A stretch of DNA of 64,000 nt. It comes from Escherichia coli. GTDB taxonomy: Bacteria; Pseudomonadota; Gammaproteobacteria; Enterobacterales; Enterobacteriaceae. Below, piece after piece: positions 3,211 to 55,642 of this stretch; the stretch's first letter is position 1; every line of letters starts with the position of its first letter. A program made the translations under genes and the position numbers. The stretch lies in NCBI RefSeq assembly GCF_003018255.1, contig NZ_CP027440.1; one strand, 5' to 3'. The notes beneath the pieces were generated by a model. The model did not search any database. It worked only from the letters and a program-made list of their open reading frames with translations, and was not told the origin of the DNA.

Positions 3211-3564
3211 ATGCACGTAAAATACTTAGCAGGGATTGTCGGTGCCGCGCTACTGATGGCGGGTTGTAGCTCCAGCAACGAATTGAGTGCTGCCGGTCAG
3301 AGTGTACGCATTGTGGACGAGCAGCCAGGCGCAGAGTGCCAGCTGATTGGTACTGCGACAGGTAAGCAAAGCAACTGGCTTTCCGGGCAACACGGAGAAG
3401 AAGGCGGTTCTATGCGCGGCGCAGCAAACGATCTGCGCAACCAAGCGGCTGCAATGGGCGGTAACGTGATTTATGGCATCAGCAGCCCGTCGCAGGGAAT
3501 GTTGTCCAGTTTTGTCCCGACGGATAGCCAGATTATCGGCCAGGTATATAAGTGCCCGAACTGA
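3211..3564 (+). CDS. yjeI: Lipoprotein YjeI (DUF4156)
   Basis: ORF track frame; start moved to internal ATG 3211 (MHVKYLAGIVGAALLMAGCSS, lipobox) giving 117 aa. Confidence 0.85.
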   Translation: MHVKYLAGIVGAALLMAGCSSSNELSAAGQSVRIVDEQPGAECQLIGTATGKQSNWLSGQHGEEGGSMRGAANDLRNQAAAMGGNVIYGISSPSQGMLSSFVPTDSQIIGQVYKCPN

Positions 3565-3613
3565 TGTGATCCAGAGGCTGGATACTTCCAGCCTCGTAGT
3601 AAAACAGATGGGA

Positions 3614-4483
3614 TTATTTCGCCTGTGGTGCAGTTTTGCTGGTGGATTGAACACGTAAGTGATGCAGCGCGCGTAAGCATTGATCCTGGGTTAGCGGTTG
3701 GGCGTTATTTGCCGCTACGGTGCGAACATAGACCTGACATGGCACACCCGCGAGTTTTTTCAGTCGGGGGCTGAAATCAAGCATTCGGCGAGTGATCGCC
3801 TCCACTTCTTTACCCGGCGTTGCTTCACGCGTTTTCACCACTGCGCCGCTAAATTGTTCTTTGCCACTTTCATCTTTAAAGCGGTAAAGCACCGCCAGAT
3901 AATGGTTGAACAAGTTATGTTTCCATTCCGGTTGGGAATAGGTGTCATATTCCAGATTGCCATTGTCCTGGCAGTCAACGTCGTATAACGGCAGGAAATC
4001 TAACAGTGAAGTAATACGTAATGCCAGTTCACGCATTTCCGCATTATTAATTGCATGAATGATTGCTCGCGCCAGCATTTCAATCTGTAATTCATTGATG
4101 ACTAACTCACATTTGCTACCGTCATGTAGTGTTAATACGAAGGTAAGATTTTCGCCCTGATTATCGGTAAGTTCCAGCGTGTTAACCCGACGATTAATAT
4201 CGGCATTTTTAAGCTCATCAACCAGAATTTCTGGGATATTTTCTGCCATTTTCTTAATGACTTTATCGCGAGCTTGCTCATACTGAAGGCGTGCAGCAGC
4301 ATCCAGTTTATGCTTTTGATGCAGACGGCTTTCCAGCGCAATCAGCAGGTCGCGCAGTTCCATGACAGACAGAAAGAACAACGATTCTTTATTGCGAGGC
4401 TCTTTAATTTTCAGCGCCAGTGCAATGAAATTATTGCTCTTGCGAATAACACCGGTATTAACACCCTTGATGCTTATGGCCAT
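3614..4483 (-). CDS. yjeJ: Uncharacterised protein YjeJ
   Basis: ORF track 3614..4513; start taken at MAISIKGVNTG (ATG revcomp 4481..4483), 289 aa; AT-rich gene. Confidence 0.8.
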   Translation of the reverse strand: MAISIKGVNTGVIRKSNNFIALALKIKEPRNKESLFFLSVMELRDLLIALESRLHQKHKLDAAARLQYEQARDKVIKKMAENIPEILVDELKNADINRRVNTLELTDNQGENLTFVLTLHDGSKCELVINELQIEMLARAIIHAINNAEMRELALRITSLLDFLPLYDVDCQDNGNLEYDTYSQPEWKHNLFNHYLAVLYRFKDESGKEQFSGAVVKTREATPGKEVEAITRRMLDFSPRLKKLAGVPCQVYVRTVAANNAQPLTQDQCLRALHHLRVQSTSKTAPQAK

Positions 4484-4717: not shown

Positions 4718-5746
4718 TTACTGCTGGCGTAGCTGGAGATCCAGCGGCGTTTTGCTGGGTTCGCCGCCAATTTCTCGCGCCAGTTTAGGCACCAGATATC
4801 CCGACACCAGTGTCAGCAACTCACGCATAATCTGCCGTGCTTCGTCATCACTCACCATAAAATGCGCCGCGCCCTGTACTTTATCGAGCACATGCAGGTA
4901 ATACGGCATCACGCCCGCATCGAACAACGCATTACTCAGGTTTGCCAGCGTTTGCGCGTTATCGTTCACACCACGTAACAGAACGCTCTGGTTGAGCAAA
5001 GTAACGCCTACCCGGCGCAACTTAGCCATCGCCTGACGGAATGTTTCATCTACCTCATTGGCATGGTTAATGTGATTCACCAGCAAGATTTGCAGCGTAG
5101 AATGAGAAAAGCGTTCAACCAGCGCATCTGTGATGCGTGCCGGGATCACAATCGGCAGACGGCTGTGAATCCGCAGACGTTTGATATGCGGGATGGCTTC
5201 CAGTTGTGTGAGCAACCAGTCCAGCTCGTGATCTTTCGCCATCAGCGGATCGCCGCCGGAGAAAATCATCTCGTCCAGTTCCGGATGCGCAGCAACATAC
5301 TCAAGTGCAGTCTGCCAGTTACGCTTGTTGCCCTGATTTTCGGCATAGGGGAAGTGGCGACGGAAGCAATAGCGGCAATTTACCGCGCAGCCGCCTTTGA
5401 CCAGCAAAAGCGCCCGGTTGTGGTATTTATGCAACAAACCTGGCACTACGCTGTGCTGTTCTTCCAGCGGGTCGGTGGAGAATCCGGGCGCGACAACAAA
5501 CTCATCTTGCGAGGTAAGTACCTGACGCAAAAGCGGATCGTTCGGATTGCCTTTCTCCATGCGATCGATAAATGAGCGGGGCACACGCAGGGCAAACAGC
5601 TTTTTGGCGCTGCGCCCGGCCAACAGTTTTTCGTCCGCGTCTATATTCAAAAGACGCAGAAGTTCATCAGGATCGGTCACAACATCGGCAAGTTGCGTTA
5701 ACCAATCTTCTCTGGATGGGGTATTTAGGGTTACAATATGCGCCAT
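4718..5746 (-). CDS. epmB: EF-P beta-lysylation enzyme, lysine 2,3-aminomutase-like radical SAM protein EpmB
   Basis: ORF track 342 aa; CAVNCRYC radical-SAM motif; recognised as YjeK/EpmB. Confidence 0.93.
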   Translation of the reverse strand: MAHIVTLNTPSREDWLTQLADVVTDPDELLRLLNIDADEKLLAGRSAKKLFALRVPRSFIDRMEKGNPNDPLLRQVLTSQDEFVVAPGFSTDPLEEQHSVVPGLLHKYHNRALLLVKGGCAVNCRYCFRRHFPYAENQGNKRNWQTALEYVAAHPELDEMIFSGGDPLMAKDHELDWLLTQLEAIPHIKRLRIHSRLPIVIPARITDALVERFSHSTLQILLVNHINHANEVDETFRQAMAKLRRVGVTLLNQSVLLRGVNDNAQTLANLSNALFDAGVMPYYLHVLDKVQGAAHFMVSDDEARQIMRELLTLVSGYLVPKLAREIGGEPSKTPLDLQLRQQ

Positions 5747-5787
5747 TTTGTGGCTTAGCTACCAATTAACAAATTTCAGAGGGCCTT

Positions 5788-6354
5788 ATGGCAACGTACT
5801 ATAGCAACGATTTTCGTGCTGGTCTTAAAATCATGTTAGACGGCGAACCTTACGCGGTTGAAGCGAGTGAATTCGTAAAACCGGGTAAAGGCCAGGCATT
5901 TGCTCGCGTTAAACTGCGTCGTCTGCTGACCGGTACTCGCGTAGAAAAAACCTTCAAATCTACTGATTCCGCTGAAGGTGCTGATGTTGTCGATATGAAC
6001 CTGACTTACCTGTACAACGACGGTGAGTTCTGGCACTTCATGAACAACGAAACTTTCGAGCAGCTGTCTGCTGATGCAAAAGCAATTGGCGACAACGCCA
6101 AATGGTTGCTGGATCAGGCAGAGTGTATCGTAACTCTGTGGAATGGTCAGCCGATCTCCGTTACTCCGCCGAACTTCGTTGAGCTGGAAATCGTTGATAC
6201 CGATCCGGGCCTGAAAGGTGATACCGCAGGTACTGGCGGCAAACCAGCTACCCTGTCTACTGGCGCTGTGGTTAAAGTTCCGCTGTTCGTACAGATCGGC
6301 GAAGTCATCAAAGTGGATACCCGCTCTGGTGAATACGTCTCTCGCGTGAAGTAA
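5788..6354 (+). CDS. efp: Elongation factor P
   Basis: ORF track 188 aa; [25 protein letters not shown]... recognised as EF-P. Confidence 0.97.
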
Positions 6355-6405
6355 TGCGGTTGTGGTGCGGCCTGCAGGCTGCACCATCACTTATTCAGGT
6401 CAGAG

Positions 6406-6531
6406 ATGATGAAACGCCTTATCGTTCTTGTTTTGCTTGCCAGTGCGCTGCTCACGGGCTGTAACACCGCTCGCGGTTTTGGTGAAGACATTAAACATCT
6501 CGGCAACTCCATCTCCCGCGCTGCCAGCTAA
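6406..6531 (+). CDS. ecnA: Entericidin A small lipoprotein
   Basis: 41-codon ORF MMKRLIVLVLLASALLTGCNTARGFGEDIKHLGNSISRAAS read directly from sequence; below the ORF-track size cutoff. Confidence 0.85.
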   Translation: MMKRLIVLVLLASALLTGCNTARGFGEDIKHLGNSISRAAS

Positions 6532-6641
6532 TTTTTCTTCTCCTCCGAAAAATCATCAGATTTCCATCATTTTTGGCGATGTTGTCTATTATTAATTTGC
6601 TATAGGCAAACATAAATAACATTACCTAAAAGGAAGACGTT

Positions 6642-6788
6642 ATGGTGAAGAAGACAATTGCAGCGATCTTTTCTGTTCTGGTGCTTTCAACAGTATTAAC
6701 TGCCTGCAACACCACGCGTGGCGTTGGTGAAGACATTTCTGATGGCGGTAACGCGATTTCTGGCGCAGCAACGAAAGCGCAGCAGTAA
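6642..6788 (+). CDS. ecnB: Entericidin B small lipoprotein
   Basis: 48-codon [51 protein letters not shown] with RBS aggaag; below ORF-track cutoff. Confidence 0.85.
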
Positions 6789-6796
6789 GCAATAAC

Positions 6797-6832
6797 GGTA
6801 CGACAGCTGTGTCGTGCCGTTTGTTTTTTTTG
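6797..6832 (+). terminator. Rho-independent terminator after ecnB
   Basis: 9-bp stem (6797..6805/6810..6818) followed by long T-tract. Confidence 0.75.
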
Positions 6833-6900
6833 CGATAGTCACAAAGGTAATAGTTGAAATTCCCCTGCCACCTGGCAAAATATCCGTTCAACCATCAGCT

Positions 6901-6945
6901 TTGCAGGACGACCTGCAAACGCCTCTTTTCACCGGGGACGGCCCC
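6901..6945 (+). promoter_or_regulatory. Guanidine-II riboswitch (mini-ykkC motif) in the gdx leader
   Basis: Two short hairpins with ACGR loops: gcaggACGAcctgc (6903..6916) and ggggACGGcccc (6934..6945), 18 nt before the gdx start. Confidence 0.8.
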
Positions 6946-6963
6946 AATTCTCCGGAGCCTGAT

Positions 6964-7281
6964 ATGTCCTGGATTATCTTAGTTATTGCTGGTCTGCTGG
7001 AAGTGGTATGGGCCGTTGGCCTGAAATATACCCACGGCTTTAGTCGTTTGACGCCAAGTGTTATTACTGTGACGGCGATGATTGTCAGTATGGCGCTACT
7101 TGCCTGGGCGATGAAATCGTTACCAGTAGGGACGGCTTATGCCGTGTGGACGGGTATTGGCGCAGTCGGCGCGGCCATCACCGGCATTGTGCTGCTCGGC
7201 GAGTCCGCTAACCCGATGCGCCTGGCGAGTCTGGCGTTAATCGTATTGGGGATTATTGGTCTGAAACTCAGCACTCACTAA
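6964..7281 (+). CDS. gdx: SMR-family guanidinium exporter Gdx (SugE)
   Basis: ORF track frame; start at internal ATG 6964 ([22 protein letters not shown]), 105 aa. Confidence 0.93.
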
Positions 7282-7815
7282 CTAACTACCGGGCTGCTGT
7301 ACCCAAATAAACTTACTGACATCAAACCCTTCCCGGGTCGCGACTGCCAGCATCTCCTGTTTCACTTCGTCAGAAATGGTTGGCGTGCGGGAGAGTATCC
7401 ACAGGTAGTCGCGGTCCGGACCGCAAACCAGCGCATGGCGGTATTCCCGATCGAGTGCAATAACGTTATAACCGCCATAGAAAGGACCAAAGAATGACAC
7501 TTTCAGCGCAGCGCGAGTTGGTGCGCCGGTAAAGTACGCTTTCCCTTCACTCTGCTGCCACATTTCTCTGTCAGGGTTATAGCCTTTATTAATGACATTC
7601 AGGCCGCCGTCATCACGCAGGCTGTATGTTGCGGTGACTTTTTCCAGTCCACGTTCAAAACGGTGATCAAAACGGGCAATCTCATACCAGGTACCGAGAT
7701 AGCGTTTAGCATCGAAATTATTCACTACGGTCACGCCACGGGGCGGCGTAGGAGAACTGCAGGCAACGACCAGAAATGCAGCTGTCGCTGCGGCAACGAG
7801 AGGGAGCAGGCGCAT
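7282..7815 (-). CDS. blc: Outer-membrane lipocalin Blc
   Basis: ORF track 177 aa; MRLLPLVAAATAAFLVVACSS lipoprotein signal; recognised as Blc. Confidence 0.93.
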   Translation of the reverse strand: MRLLPLVAAATAAFLVVACSSPTPPRGVTVVNNFDAKRYLGTWYEIARFDHRFERGLEKVTATYSLRDDGGLNVINKGYNPDREMWQQSEGKAYFTGAPTRAALKVSFFGPFYGGYNVIALDREYRHALVCGPDRDYLWILSRTPTISDEVKQEMLAVATREGFDVSKFIWVQQPGS

Positions 7816-7903
7816 AAATGTTTCCTTACTGGTTTTTTTCTAAGTGTAGATGACAGCAAGGAAAAGCGGAGAAAAGGTCCAAAAATTCGGACCCGATGAA
7901 ATT

Positions 7904-9459
<1,556 letters not shown>

Positions 9460-22465: not shown

Positions 22466-22541
<76 letters not shown>

Positions 22542-22698
22542 AAATTTGAAAAGTGCTGCAAAGCACAGACCACCCAATCGCAGTATTTCGAATTGCGACA
22601 AGGCGGCAACTGAACGAATCCTTGGGAACTTACAAAAGTAAGTGACTAAGGTGAGTGAAGGCAGCCAAGGCAGTAGCGGTTCGAAAGACGAAGATTAA

Positions 22699-22774
<76 letters not shown>

Positions 22775-22809
22775 AAATTTGAAAGTGCTGTAAAGCACAG
22801 ACCACCCAA

Positions 22810-22885
<76 letters not shown>

Positions 22886-54919: not shown

Positions 54920-55228
54920 AGATACCTCCTCGACGGCTGACTTTGTGTGCTCTCCTCTTGTGGTGATCTTCTGATTTAATTTTAATCAATGATAAAGAAG
55001 TGGATGGTGACCATTTCTGATGCAGTTGTTCAAAAAAACACCATGATGAAGTGTGATGAACTTCAAATCAGCGTGTTAGTACGATTTGGTGAAGGATGAG
55101 ATTTATTTGTCGGCTGGCCTTGAGTTTAGCGGGGTATGTCAGTACTATAACGCGTCATTTTTCAGCCGACCTTTAACACGTTCCTTGCCTCCCCGGGATT
55201 CGGCTGACCCAGACAGGAGGCTGAATAA

Positions 55229-55642
<414 letters not shown>

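Follow-up and report, generated by a model that had tools for sequence, protein, structure and literature searches.

Positions 6406-6788 of the window (the whole 64,000-nucleotide stretch of Escherichia coli DNA analysed here) hold two short open reading frames, which the initial annotation had read as the entericidin genes. The locus raises the question of whether these frames are indeed the entericidin genes and, if so, whether the names given to their products, a bacteriolytic lipoprotein and its antidote, describe what the products do in the cell. The first part can be answered almost without reserve. It is essentially certain that the two frames are ecnA and ecnB, which make up the entericidin locus on the E. 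coli chromosome. These genes are already known, with names, annotation and published work going back to 1998, and the copies in this strain are ordinary. The locus consists of tandem paralogous genes, both on the plus strand and flanked by efp and sugE/gdx, with the following coding features:

6406-6531, plus strand: ecnA coding sequence (entericidin A), from the ATG at 6406 to the TAA at 6529-6531, 41 codons, MMKRLIVLVLLASALLTGCNTARGFGEDIKHLGNSISRAAS
6451-6462, plus strand: lipobox L-T-G-C of EcnA, at the end of the signal peptide (codons 1-18), with the Cys19 codon at 6460-6462
6466-6525, plus strand: Entericidin domain of EcnA (residues 21-40), within a mature peptide of 23 aa
6642-6788, plus strand: ecnB coding sequence (entericidin B), from the ATG at 6642 to the TAA at 6786-6788, 48 codons
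6696-6707, plus strand: lipobox L-T-A-C of EcnB, at the end of the signal peptide (codons 1-21), with the Cys22 codon at 6705-6707
6711-6770, plus strand: Entericidin domain of EcnB (residues 24-43), within a glycine-rich mature peptide of 27 aa with a net charge of -1

The identification as the known entericidin locus was borne out by family and equivalog profiles, synteny, RefSeq annotation and exact-sequence look-up. The two tandem frames of 41 and 48 codons lie at the coordinates first assigned to them, and when we looked for a frameshift or stop codon in this strain, both were found to be intact and of full length. Both products match the 20-residue Entericidin domain (Pfam PF08085) over the entire profile (1-20 of 20), with 26.5 bits for EcnA and 30.2 bits for EcnB against a cut-off of 23.3. 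The NCBIfam equivalog models NF007319 (EcnA) and NF007487 (EcnB) gave 112.7 bits for EcnA (cut-off 86, matching 1-41 of 41) and 121.9 bits for EcnB (cut-off 94, matching 1-48 of 48), whereas the cross-scores were far lower (43.3 for the EcnB model on EcnA and 46.5 for the EcnA model on EcnB). Pairwise alignment of the two proteins yielded 23 identical residues out of 44 (E = 2e-13), and they are therefore paralogues. The shared GxGEDI motif takes the form GFGEDI in EcnA and GVGEDI in EcnB, and the pattern CNT.RG.GEDI...G..IS.A is invariant in all seven aligned sequences, as is the lipobox cysteine. One part of the original description has to be corrected: the signal peptides, said to be near-identical, agree at only 8 of 21 aligned positions, with one gap of 3 residues, and are alike in type only. 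As counted on the same alignment, the mature parts are better conserved than the signal peptides (15 of 23 versus 8 of 21). A profile search of the PDB found no solved relative (best E-value 0.86, on a signal peptide), and a search of Rfam at a permissive threshold found nothing inside ecnAB, its sole match being the guanidine-II riboswitch downstream.

The gene order epmB, efp, ecnA, ecnB, sugE/gdx, blc, ampC, frdDCBA is the same as that in K-12 (b4147-b4410-b4411-b4148), and the order of open reading frames in the window, with ecnA and ecnB in tandem on the same strand, agrees with the annotated order in both JNE23-011 and K-12. Three tandem tRNA-Gly(GCC) genes (22466-22885, plus strand) and an RpsF leader (55165-55249, plus strand, 110.1 bits) also agree with what follows ecnAB on a standard E. 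coli chromosome. Of 5,426 complete E. coli genomes, 5,425 matched a 601-base query covering the locus and one did not match at all; in 5,422, the match spanned at least 80% of the query. Matches in the complete genomes are annotated as 'ecnA: lipoprotein antitoxin entericidin A' and 'ecnB: lipoprotein toxin entericidin B', and the exact EcnA and EcnB proteins are each found under those names on at least 1000 public contigs.

EcnA (b4410) and EcnB (b4411) of K-12 MG1655 have the same position, lengths (41 and 48 aa), spacer, promoter block, Shine-Dalgarno sequence and terminator, and the mean column identity with K-12 over the aligned stretch 6340-6900 is 99%. The comparison with the reference proteins proposed as a check showed that EcnB is 100% identical to K-12 EcnB (the gene has one synonymous change) and that EcnA differs by T14A only, in addition to five synonymous changes in its gene. 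Because residue 14 lies within the signal peptide, in its hydrophobic core, mature EcnA is unchanged; the Ala14 allele is a common one, its exact sequence being present on at least 1000 contigs. In the noncoding parts, the window differs from K-12 by two SNPs in the spacer and one in the T-run of the terminator.

Salmonella and Klebsiella pneumoniae contain the same tandem pair in the same efp-ecnA-ecnB-sugE-blc-frd synteny. Their EcnB proteins differ from that of the window at 2-4 of 48 residues, and their EcnA proteins are 43-44 aa long and 70-78% identical. Klebsiella has approximately 58 additional nucleotides after ecnA and is without ampC. In Salmonella, ecnB and sugE are separated by a gene, in the opposite orientation, for a regulator with a LuxR-type C-terminal domain; the E. 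coli window has no such gene, only a gap of 175 bp. On the Salmonella plasmid pPJT1-452kb, the LuxR-type gene is located at record positions 3420-4007; the whole chromosomal block from yjeI to frd is found on this IncHI2A conjugative plasmid record. Several other PLSDB 'plasmid' records with ecnAB are 0.37-5.4 Mb in size and look like chromosomes or pieces of chromosomes, for example 'plasmid unnamed2' of K. pneumoniae (CP125156.1, 5.37 Mb). In addition, E. coli-type ecnAB with 97.9% identity is found on two further records, one of 5.3 kb from Klebsiella oxytoca and one of 24.5 kb from E. coli; these may represent excised amplicons of the ampC region (cf. PMC12625342).

As read from the translations, each protein has a basic N-terminus and a hydrophobic stretch followed by the lipobox (L-T-G-C19 in EcnA and L-T-A-C22 in EcnB), which in both conforms to the pattern [LVI][ASTVI][GAS]C and stands just ahead of the Entericidin domain; the match of EcnA to the Pfam profile LPAM_1 falls below the cut-off (17.7 versus 20). 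Judging by these features and by how lipoproteins are generally processed, each protein would be synthesised as a prolipoprotein and exported, with the lipobox cysteine becoming diacylglyceryl-modified (Cys19 in EcnA and Cys22 in EcnB); after cleavage by signal peptidase II and N-acylation, lipopeptides of 23 and 27 aa would remain. The Lol system should then send both to the outer membrane, because the residue following the cysteine is Asn and not Asp (the +2 rule), a destination to which one proteomics table also points. Cys22 has been cited as the lipidated residue of EcnB (PMC12529367). The mature part of EcnA, which has a net charge of +1, gives a clear amphipathic-helix signal, its best 11-mer reaching a hydrophobic moment of 0.75 (1.3% of shuffles are as high); that of mature EcnB is weaker (0.55, with 8% of shuffles as high).

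Translation, whose absence had been named among the observations that would speak against the two genes, is well documented for EcnB, which is routinely detected by mass spectrometry and is among the few small proteins seen in nearly every E. coli proteomics study (PMC12529367). Cells in minimal medium contain up to ~70,000 copies of it, and a clpP mutant shows a >100-fold increase (PMC12529367). In Shigella sonnei, EcnB is the most abundant lipoprotein of outer-membrane blebs, accounting for 8.4% of the mass, and is listed as an outer-membrane lipoprotein (PMC4820968). For EcnA, no direct protein-level evidence was found in the literature searched. Atu8019 of Agrobacterium tumefaciens, likened here by description, is likewise a small Entericidin-domain lipoprotein that is exposed at the outer membrane and present on vesicles (PMC7296081). 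It differs in that it has been studied as a single lipoprotein (53 aa), for which a role in vesicle docking has been proposed (PMC7296081).

The two genes appear to be expressed in different ways. Upstream of ecnA, one feature stands out:

6358-6391, plus strand: GC-rich hairpin directly 3' of the efp stop codon (6352-6354), without a proper U-tract (CUUAUUCAGG)

This hairpin has a folding energy of -22.6 kcal/mol (z = -3.47), none of 200 shuffled sequences folds as well, and the window, K-12 and JNE23-011 all share it without change. Its probable role is that of a leaky efp terminator or of a stabiliser of the mRNA 3' end. A consensus scan of 6200-6405 detected no sigma-70-like promoter ahead of ecnA, and the Shine-Dalgarno-like site, CAGG at 6396-6399, is weak, with an anti-Shine-Dalgarno pairing of only -3.2 kcal/mol. 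Given the hairpin without a U-tract, the lack of a sigma-70-like promoter in that scan and the weak Shine-Dalgarno site, we infer that ecnA is probably transcribed, at a low level, by read-through from efp past the hairpin.

For ecnB, a full set of expression signals can be proposed:

6585-6606, plus strand: ecnB promoter region in the 110-bp ecnA-ecnB spacer, placed from the literature and conservation
6585-6595, plus strand: candidate sigma-S-type extended -10 element, TCTATTATTAA
6598-6606, plus strand: candidate promoter-proximal -10-like pause element, TGCTATAGG
6630-6636, plus strand: ecnB Shine-Dalgarno sequence AAGGAAG, 7 nt from GGA to ATG
6643-6673, plus strand: predicted site of pairing between MicA (nt 1-24) and the ecnB mRNA (codons 1-11)
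6794-6831, plus strand: ecnB intrinsic terminator from the terminator scan, a 12-bp stem (6794-6821) followed by TGTTTTTTTT (T8)

The element TCTATTATTAA agrees well with the extended -10 consensus of sigma-S promoters. A scan of 6200-7000 with the sigma-70 consensus detected no promoter for either ecnA or ecnB; the ecnB promoter is of the sigma-S type, which such a scan misses, and it was therefore placed from the literature. It has been described as a natural sigma-38-dependent promoter that is poorly recognised by sigma-70 RNA polymerase and that contains a -10-like pause motif with a key A at +5, pausing occurring at +17/+18; OmpR sites overlap this pause (PMC5389655). Applying the published geometry of the pause element (key A at +5) to TGCTATAGG places the inferred transcription start near 6598-6599, with two derivations differing by one. 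E. coli and Salmonella share the promoter block GATGTTGTCTATTATTAA.TTGCTATA, which in Klebsiella takes the more consensus-like form GTCTATGCTTA. Folding of the ecnA-ecnB spacer revealed no significant structure (z = -1.12), and we therefore claim no attenuator there.

The anti-Shine-Dalgarno pairing of ecnB amounts to -5.6 kcal/mol (6629-6635), and the pattern AAGGA.GAC.TTATGGT is kept in Salmonella and Klebsiella. The small RNA MicA represses the ecnB mRNA in E. coli, for which the 5' linear region of MicA is required (PMC3551931). Using the MicA sequence of K-12, MicA being encoded outside the window, RNAduplex gave -18.9 kcal/mol for the MicA-ecnB pair compared with -10.1 +/- 2.6 for 300 shuffled targets, none of which was as good; the exact pairing is a prediction. 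The terminator folds with -21.4 kcal/mol (z = -5.66), and in Salmonella and Klebsiella both arms have changed such that the stem is preserved. Taken together, ecnB would have its own sigma-S-dependent promoter in the spacer, would be repressed by OmpR and MicA, and would end at a strong intrinsic terminator. In this respect it resembles osmB, another small lipoprotein gene under the control of sigma-S and osmolarity, and both genes have been listed as sigma-S genes. Under inhibition of LolCDE, ecnB has been reported to rise 6.7-13.5-fold without ecnA, the cells surviving, and ecnA to rise without ecnB in faeces.

Beyond the terminator, the region contains a guanidine-II (mini-ykkC) riboswitch (6900-6946, plus strand; 50.4 bits versus a gathering threshold of 32) directly upstream of the ATG of sugE/gdx at 6964, which is the known element of this guanidinium exporter gene. 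The mechanically called sugE frame (6814-7281, plus strand), 155 aa from a GTG at 6814, extends through the riboswitch into the tail of the ecnB terminator; in relatives, sugE is annotated with 105 aa from the ATG at 6964. The mechanical ampC frame is likewise over-extended (442 aa versus an annotated gene of 1134 nt).

Type I toxins, such as those of Hok/Sok and TisB/IstR, Ldr and Ibs, are non-lipidated inner-membrane helices that are neutralised by a dedicated antisense RNA. These peptides are, like the entericidins, small, membrane-active and toxic if overproduced, and the ecnB mRNA is likewise lowered by a small RNA, MicA. Unlike in the type I systems, a lipoprotein paralogous to EcnB is the proposed antidote in ecnAB, and MicA, a small RNA of the envelope stress response, acts in trans on many targets (PMC3551931).

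The description of the locus as encoding a bacteriolytic lipoprotein and its antidote stands as the published reading of 1998, which was carried into annotation; the strict dependency that it implies is opposed by later work and by natural variants. As related by citing papers, cells lyse when EcnB is overproduced, an effect that co-expression of EcnA in cis counteracts or mitigates (Bishop et al. 1998). It is from these overproduction results that the toxin/antidote annotation derives, and the label is a disputed interpretation of the 1998 overexpression experiments and not an established physiological role. Doubt about the label is already in print (PMC7296081), and what is new here against it is the natural-variant evidence only.

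We propose instead that EcnA and EcnB would be dose-dependent membrane-active lipopeptides. At native levels, EcnB would be an abundant lipoprotein of the outer membrane and vesicles in stationary phase and starvation rather than an armed toxin, and EcnA would be its weakly expressed paralogue with a modulating effect. That this is a known entericidin locus with the biogenesis, regulation and dose-dependent membrane-active lipopeptide role proposed above is, as a whole, very probably the best explanation. Its parts merit different confidence: we consider the chances about even that EcnB is an abundant envelope and vesicle lipoprotein with dose-dependent toxicity. Slightly below that, and only tentatively, we suggest that the names 'toxin' and 'antitoxin' are a misnomer, with EcnB acting in envelope stress or at the surface, its lysis being an artefact of overexpression, and EcnA being a dispensable, weakly expressed modulator.

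The natural variants bear directly on this issue. Three distinct small indels were found within the first four codons of ecnA (window 6406-6418), namely a 2-nt deletion (TG), a 4-nt insertion (AAAC) and a 2-nt insertion (CG), each of which frameshifts the gene at codons 2-4 with ecnB remaining intact (98-100% identity). The deletion is present in the complete genome of strain RM9387 (NZ_CP009104.1, record positions 521-545), where ATGATGAAAC has become ATGAAAAC at the start of ecnA; this was the only match to the allele among the 5,426 complete E. coli genomes, and a draft genome with a different SNP background carries the same allele. Both insertions are duplications seen in draft genomes, that of AAAC with at least 21 similar contigs. 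Among the 5,426 complete genomes, the 4-nt allele had no match and the 2-nt duplication matched only wild-type sequences (95.9%). Automatic annotation (PGAP) 'rescues' the frameshifted ecnA as a 36-aa product with an ATC start or as a 46-aa product. The strains concerned may make a 36-aa EcnA from a non-canonical start, or their ecnB may be silent. Because the alleles are rare and have such annotation-rescued products, they show that loss of ecnA is tolerated, not that ecnA is useless. By contrast with these alleles, UPEC129 (NZ_CP071522.1, record positions ~4055-4157) is without both ecnA and ecnB as the result of a clean 508-bp deletion between two copies of the 7-bp sequence ACCATCA (window 6383-6389 and 6891-6897), which left efp, the riboswitch and sugE intact.

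The classical alternative is that ecnAB is a true chromosomal toxin-antitoxin module for addiction or programmed death, in which EcnA must neutralise EcnB to keep it from lysing its producer in low-osmolarity stationary phase, and which could stabilise plasmids by post-segregational killing. This is how RefSeq and K-12 annotation name the products ('lipoprotein toxin entericidin B' and 'antidote to entericidin B'), on the strength of the lysis and antidote effects that citing papers report from the 1998 overexpression experiments. That E. coli, Salmonella and Klebsiella all retain both tandem paralogues is also in keeping with such a module, as is the joint loss of both genes from UPEC129 in one deletion. 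However, the EcnB copy numbers given above (PMC12529367), the survival of cells in which ecnB is induced without ecnA, and the existence of a viable ecnA mutant in the Keio collection (PMC7296081) are difficult to reconcile with lethal EcnB held in check by EcnA. Moreover, RM9387 and several draft genomes pair a frameshifted ecnA with an intact ecnB, and the separate control of the two genes (an ecnB promoter of its own and independent mRNAs) is unlike that of a typical autoregulated toxin-antitoxin operon, although transcription may read through from ecnA into ecnB. The Agrobacterium homologue Atu8019 caused neither lysis nor pore formation (PMC7296081). We therefore regard an addiction module as unlikely, with perhaps a modest chance of being correct.

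The coding sequences themselves bear on the remaining alternatives. Substitutions in ecnB at codon positions 1/2/3 number 1/2/21 relative to Salmonella (P = 6e-8; dN/dS 0.017) and 5/1/24 relative to Klebsiella (P = 2e-7 for the excess at position 3; dN/dS 0.020). In the mature part of ecnA, the corresponding counts are 3/0/9 (P = 0.004; dN/dS 0.06) and 5/4/11 (P = 0.04; dN/dS 0.17). These patterns indicate that both genes are under purifying selection, which is very strong for ecnB and less so for ecnA. As ecnA is under such selection, it clearly does something.

A toxin accompanied by a faster-evolving paralogue (dN/dS of 0.06-0.17 for EcnA versus 0.02 for EcnB) resembles a bacteriocin-immunity pair, and EcnB could in principle be chiefly an exported weapon, delivered by vesicles or as a released lipopeptide, that lyses competitors, with EcnA being the immunity factor of the producer. 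EcnB-like proteins occur in vesicles of several genera (PMC7296081) and in Shigella blebs (PMC4820968). In addition, a secreted EcnB homologue of ~3 kDa from Enterobacter sp. C6-6 has been described, in work cited in PMC7296081, as bacteriolytic on Flavobacterium psychrophilum. As far as that citation relates it, this finding supports real lytic activity and counts against our own view that EcnB is not an armed toxin. Nevertheless, EcnB is almost invariant across the Enterobacteriaceae, unlike the diversifying bacteriocins, strains without a functional ecnA keep ecnB, and purified Atu8019 docks vesicles to cells without lysing liposomes (PMC7296081). An exported weapon is thus improbable, and clearly more so than an addiction module. 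Finally, the idea that the two frames are mere chance frames between genes can be given almost no credence: short frames are indeed very common here (55 frames of at least 20 aa overlap 5000-8500), but those of ecnA and ecnB match profiles above curated cut-offs and are paralogous (E = 2e-13), and that of ecnB in particular shows a third-position bias with P down to 6e-8 and a dN/dS of 0.02, has a conserved Shine-Dalgarno sequence, promoter and terminator, and yields a protein seen by mass spectrometry.

The abundant envelope lipoprotein thus remains our preferred reading of EcnB, and its gene was overlooked for a simple reason. As the initial annotation had recognised, the open reading frame list misses ecnA and ecnB because both proteins are shorter than its 60-aa cut-off. 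The only frames of at least 60 aa over ecnB are antisense ones with TTG starts, 6640-6891 (minus strand, 83 aa) and 6696-6878 (minus strand, 60 aa). These were rejected as genes: the 83-aa frame is closed in Salmonella and Klebsiella, and the substitutions fall at third positions of the plus-strand frame. A 60-aa cut-off therefore hides genes that are real and highly expressed, with spurious antisense frames appearing in their place. For ecnA and ecnB themselves, the words 'toxin' and 'antitoxin' that accompany them in annotation should not be read as established physiology.
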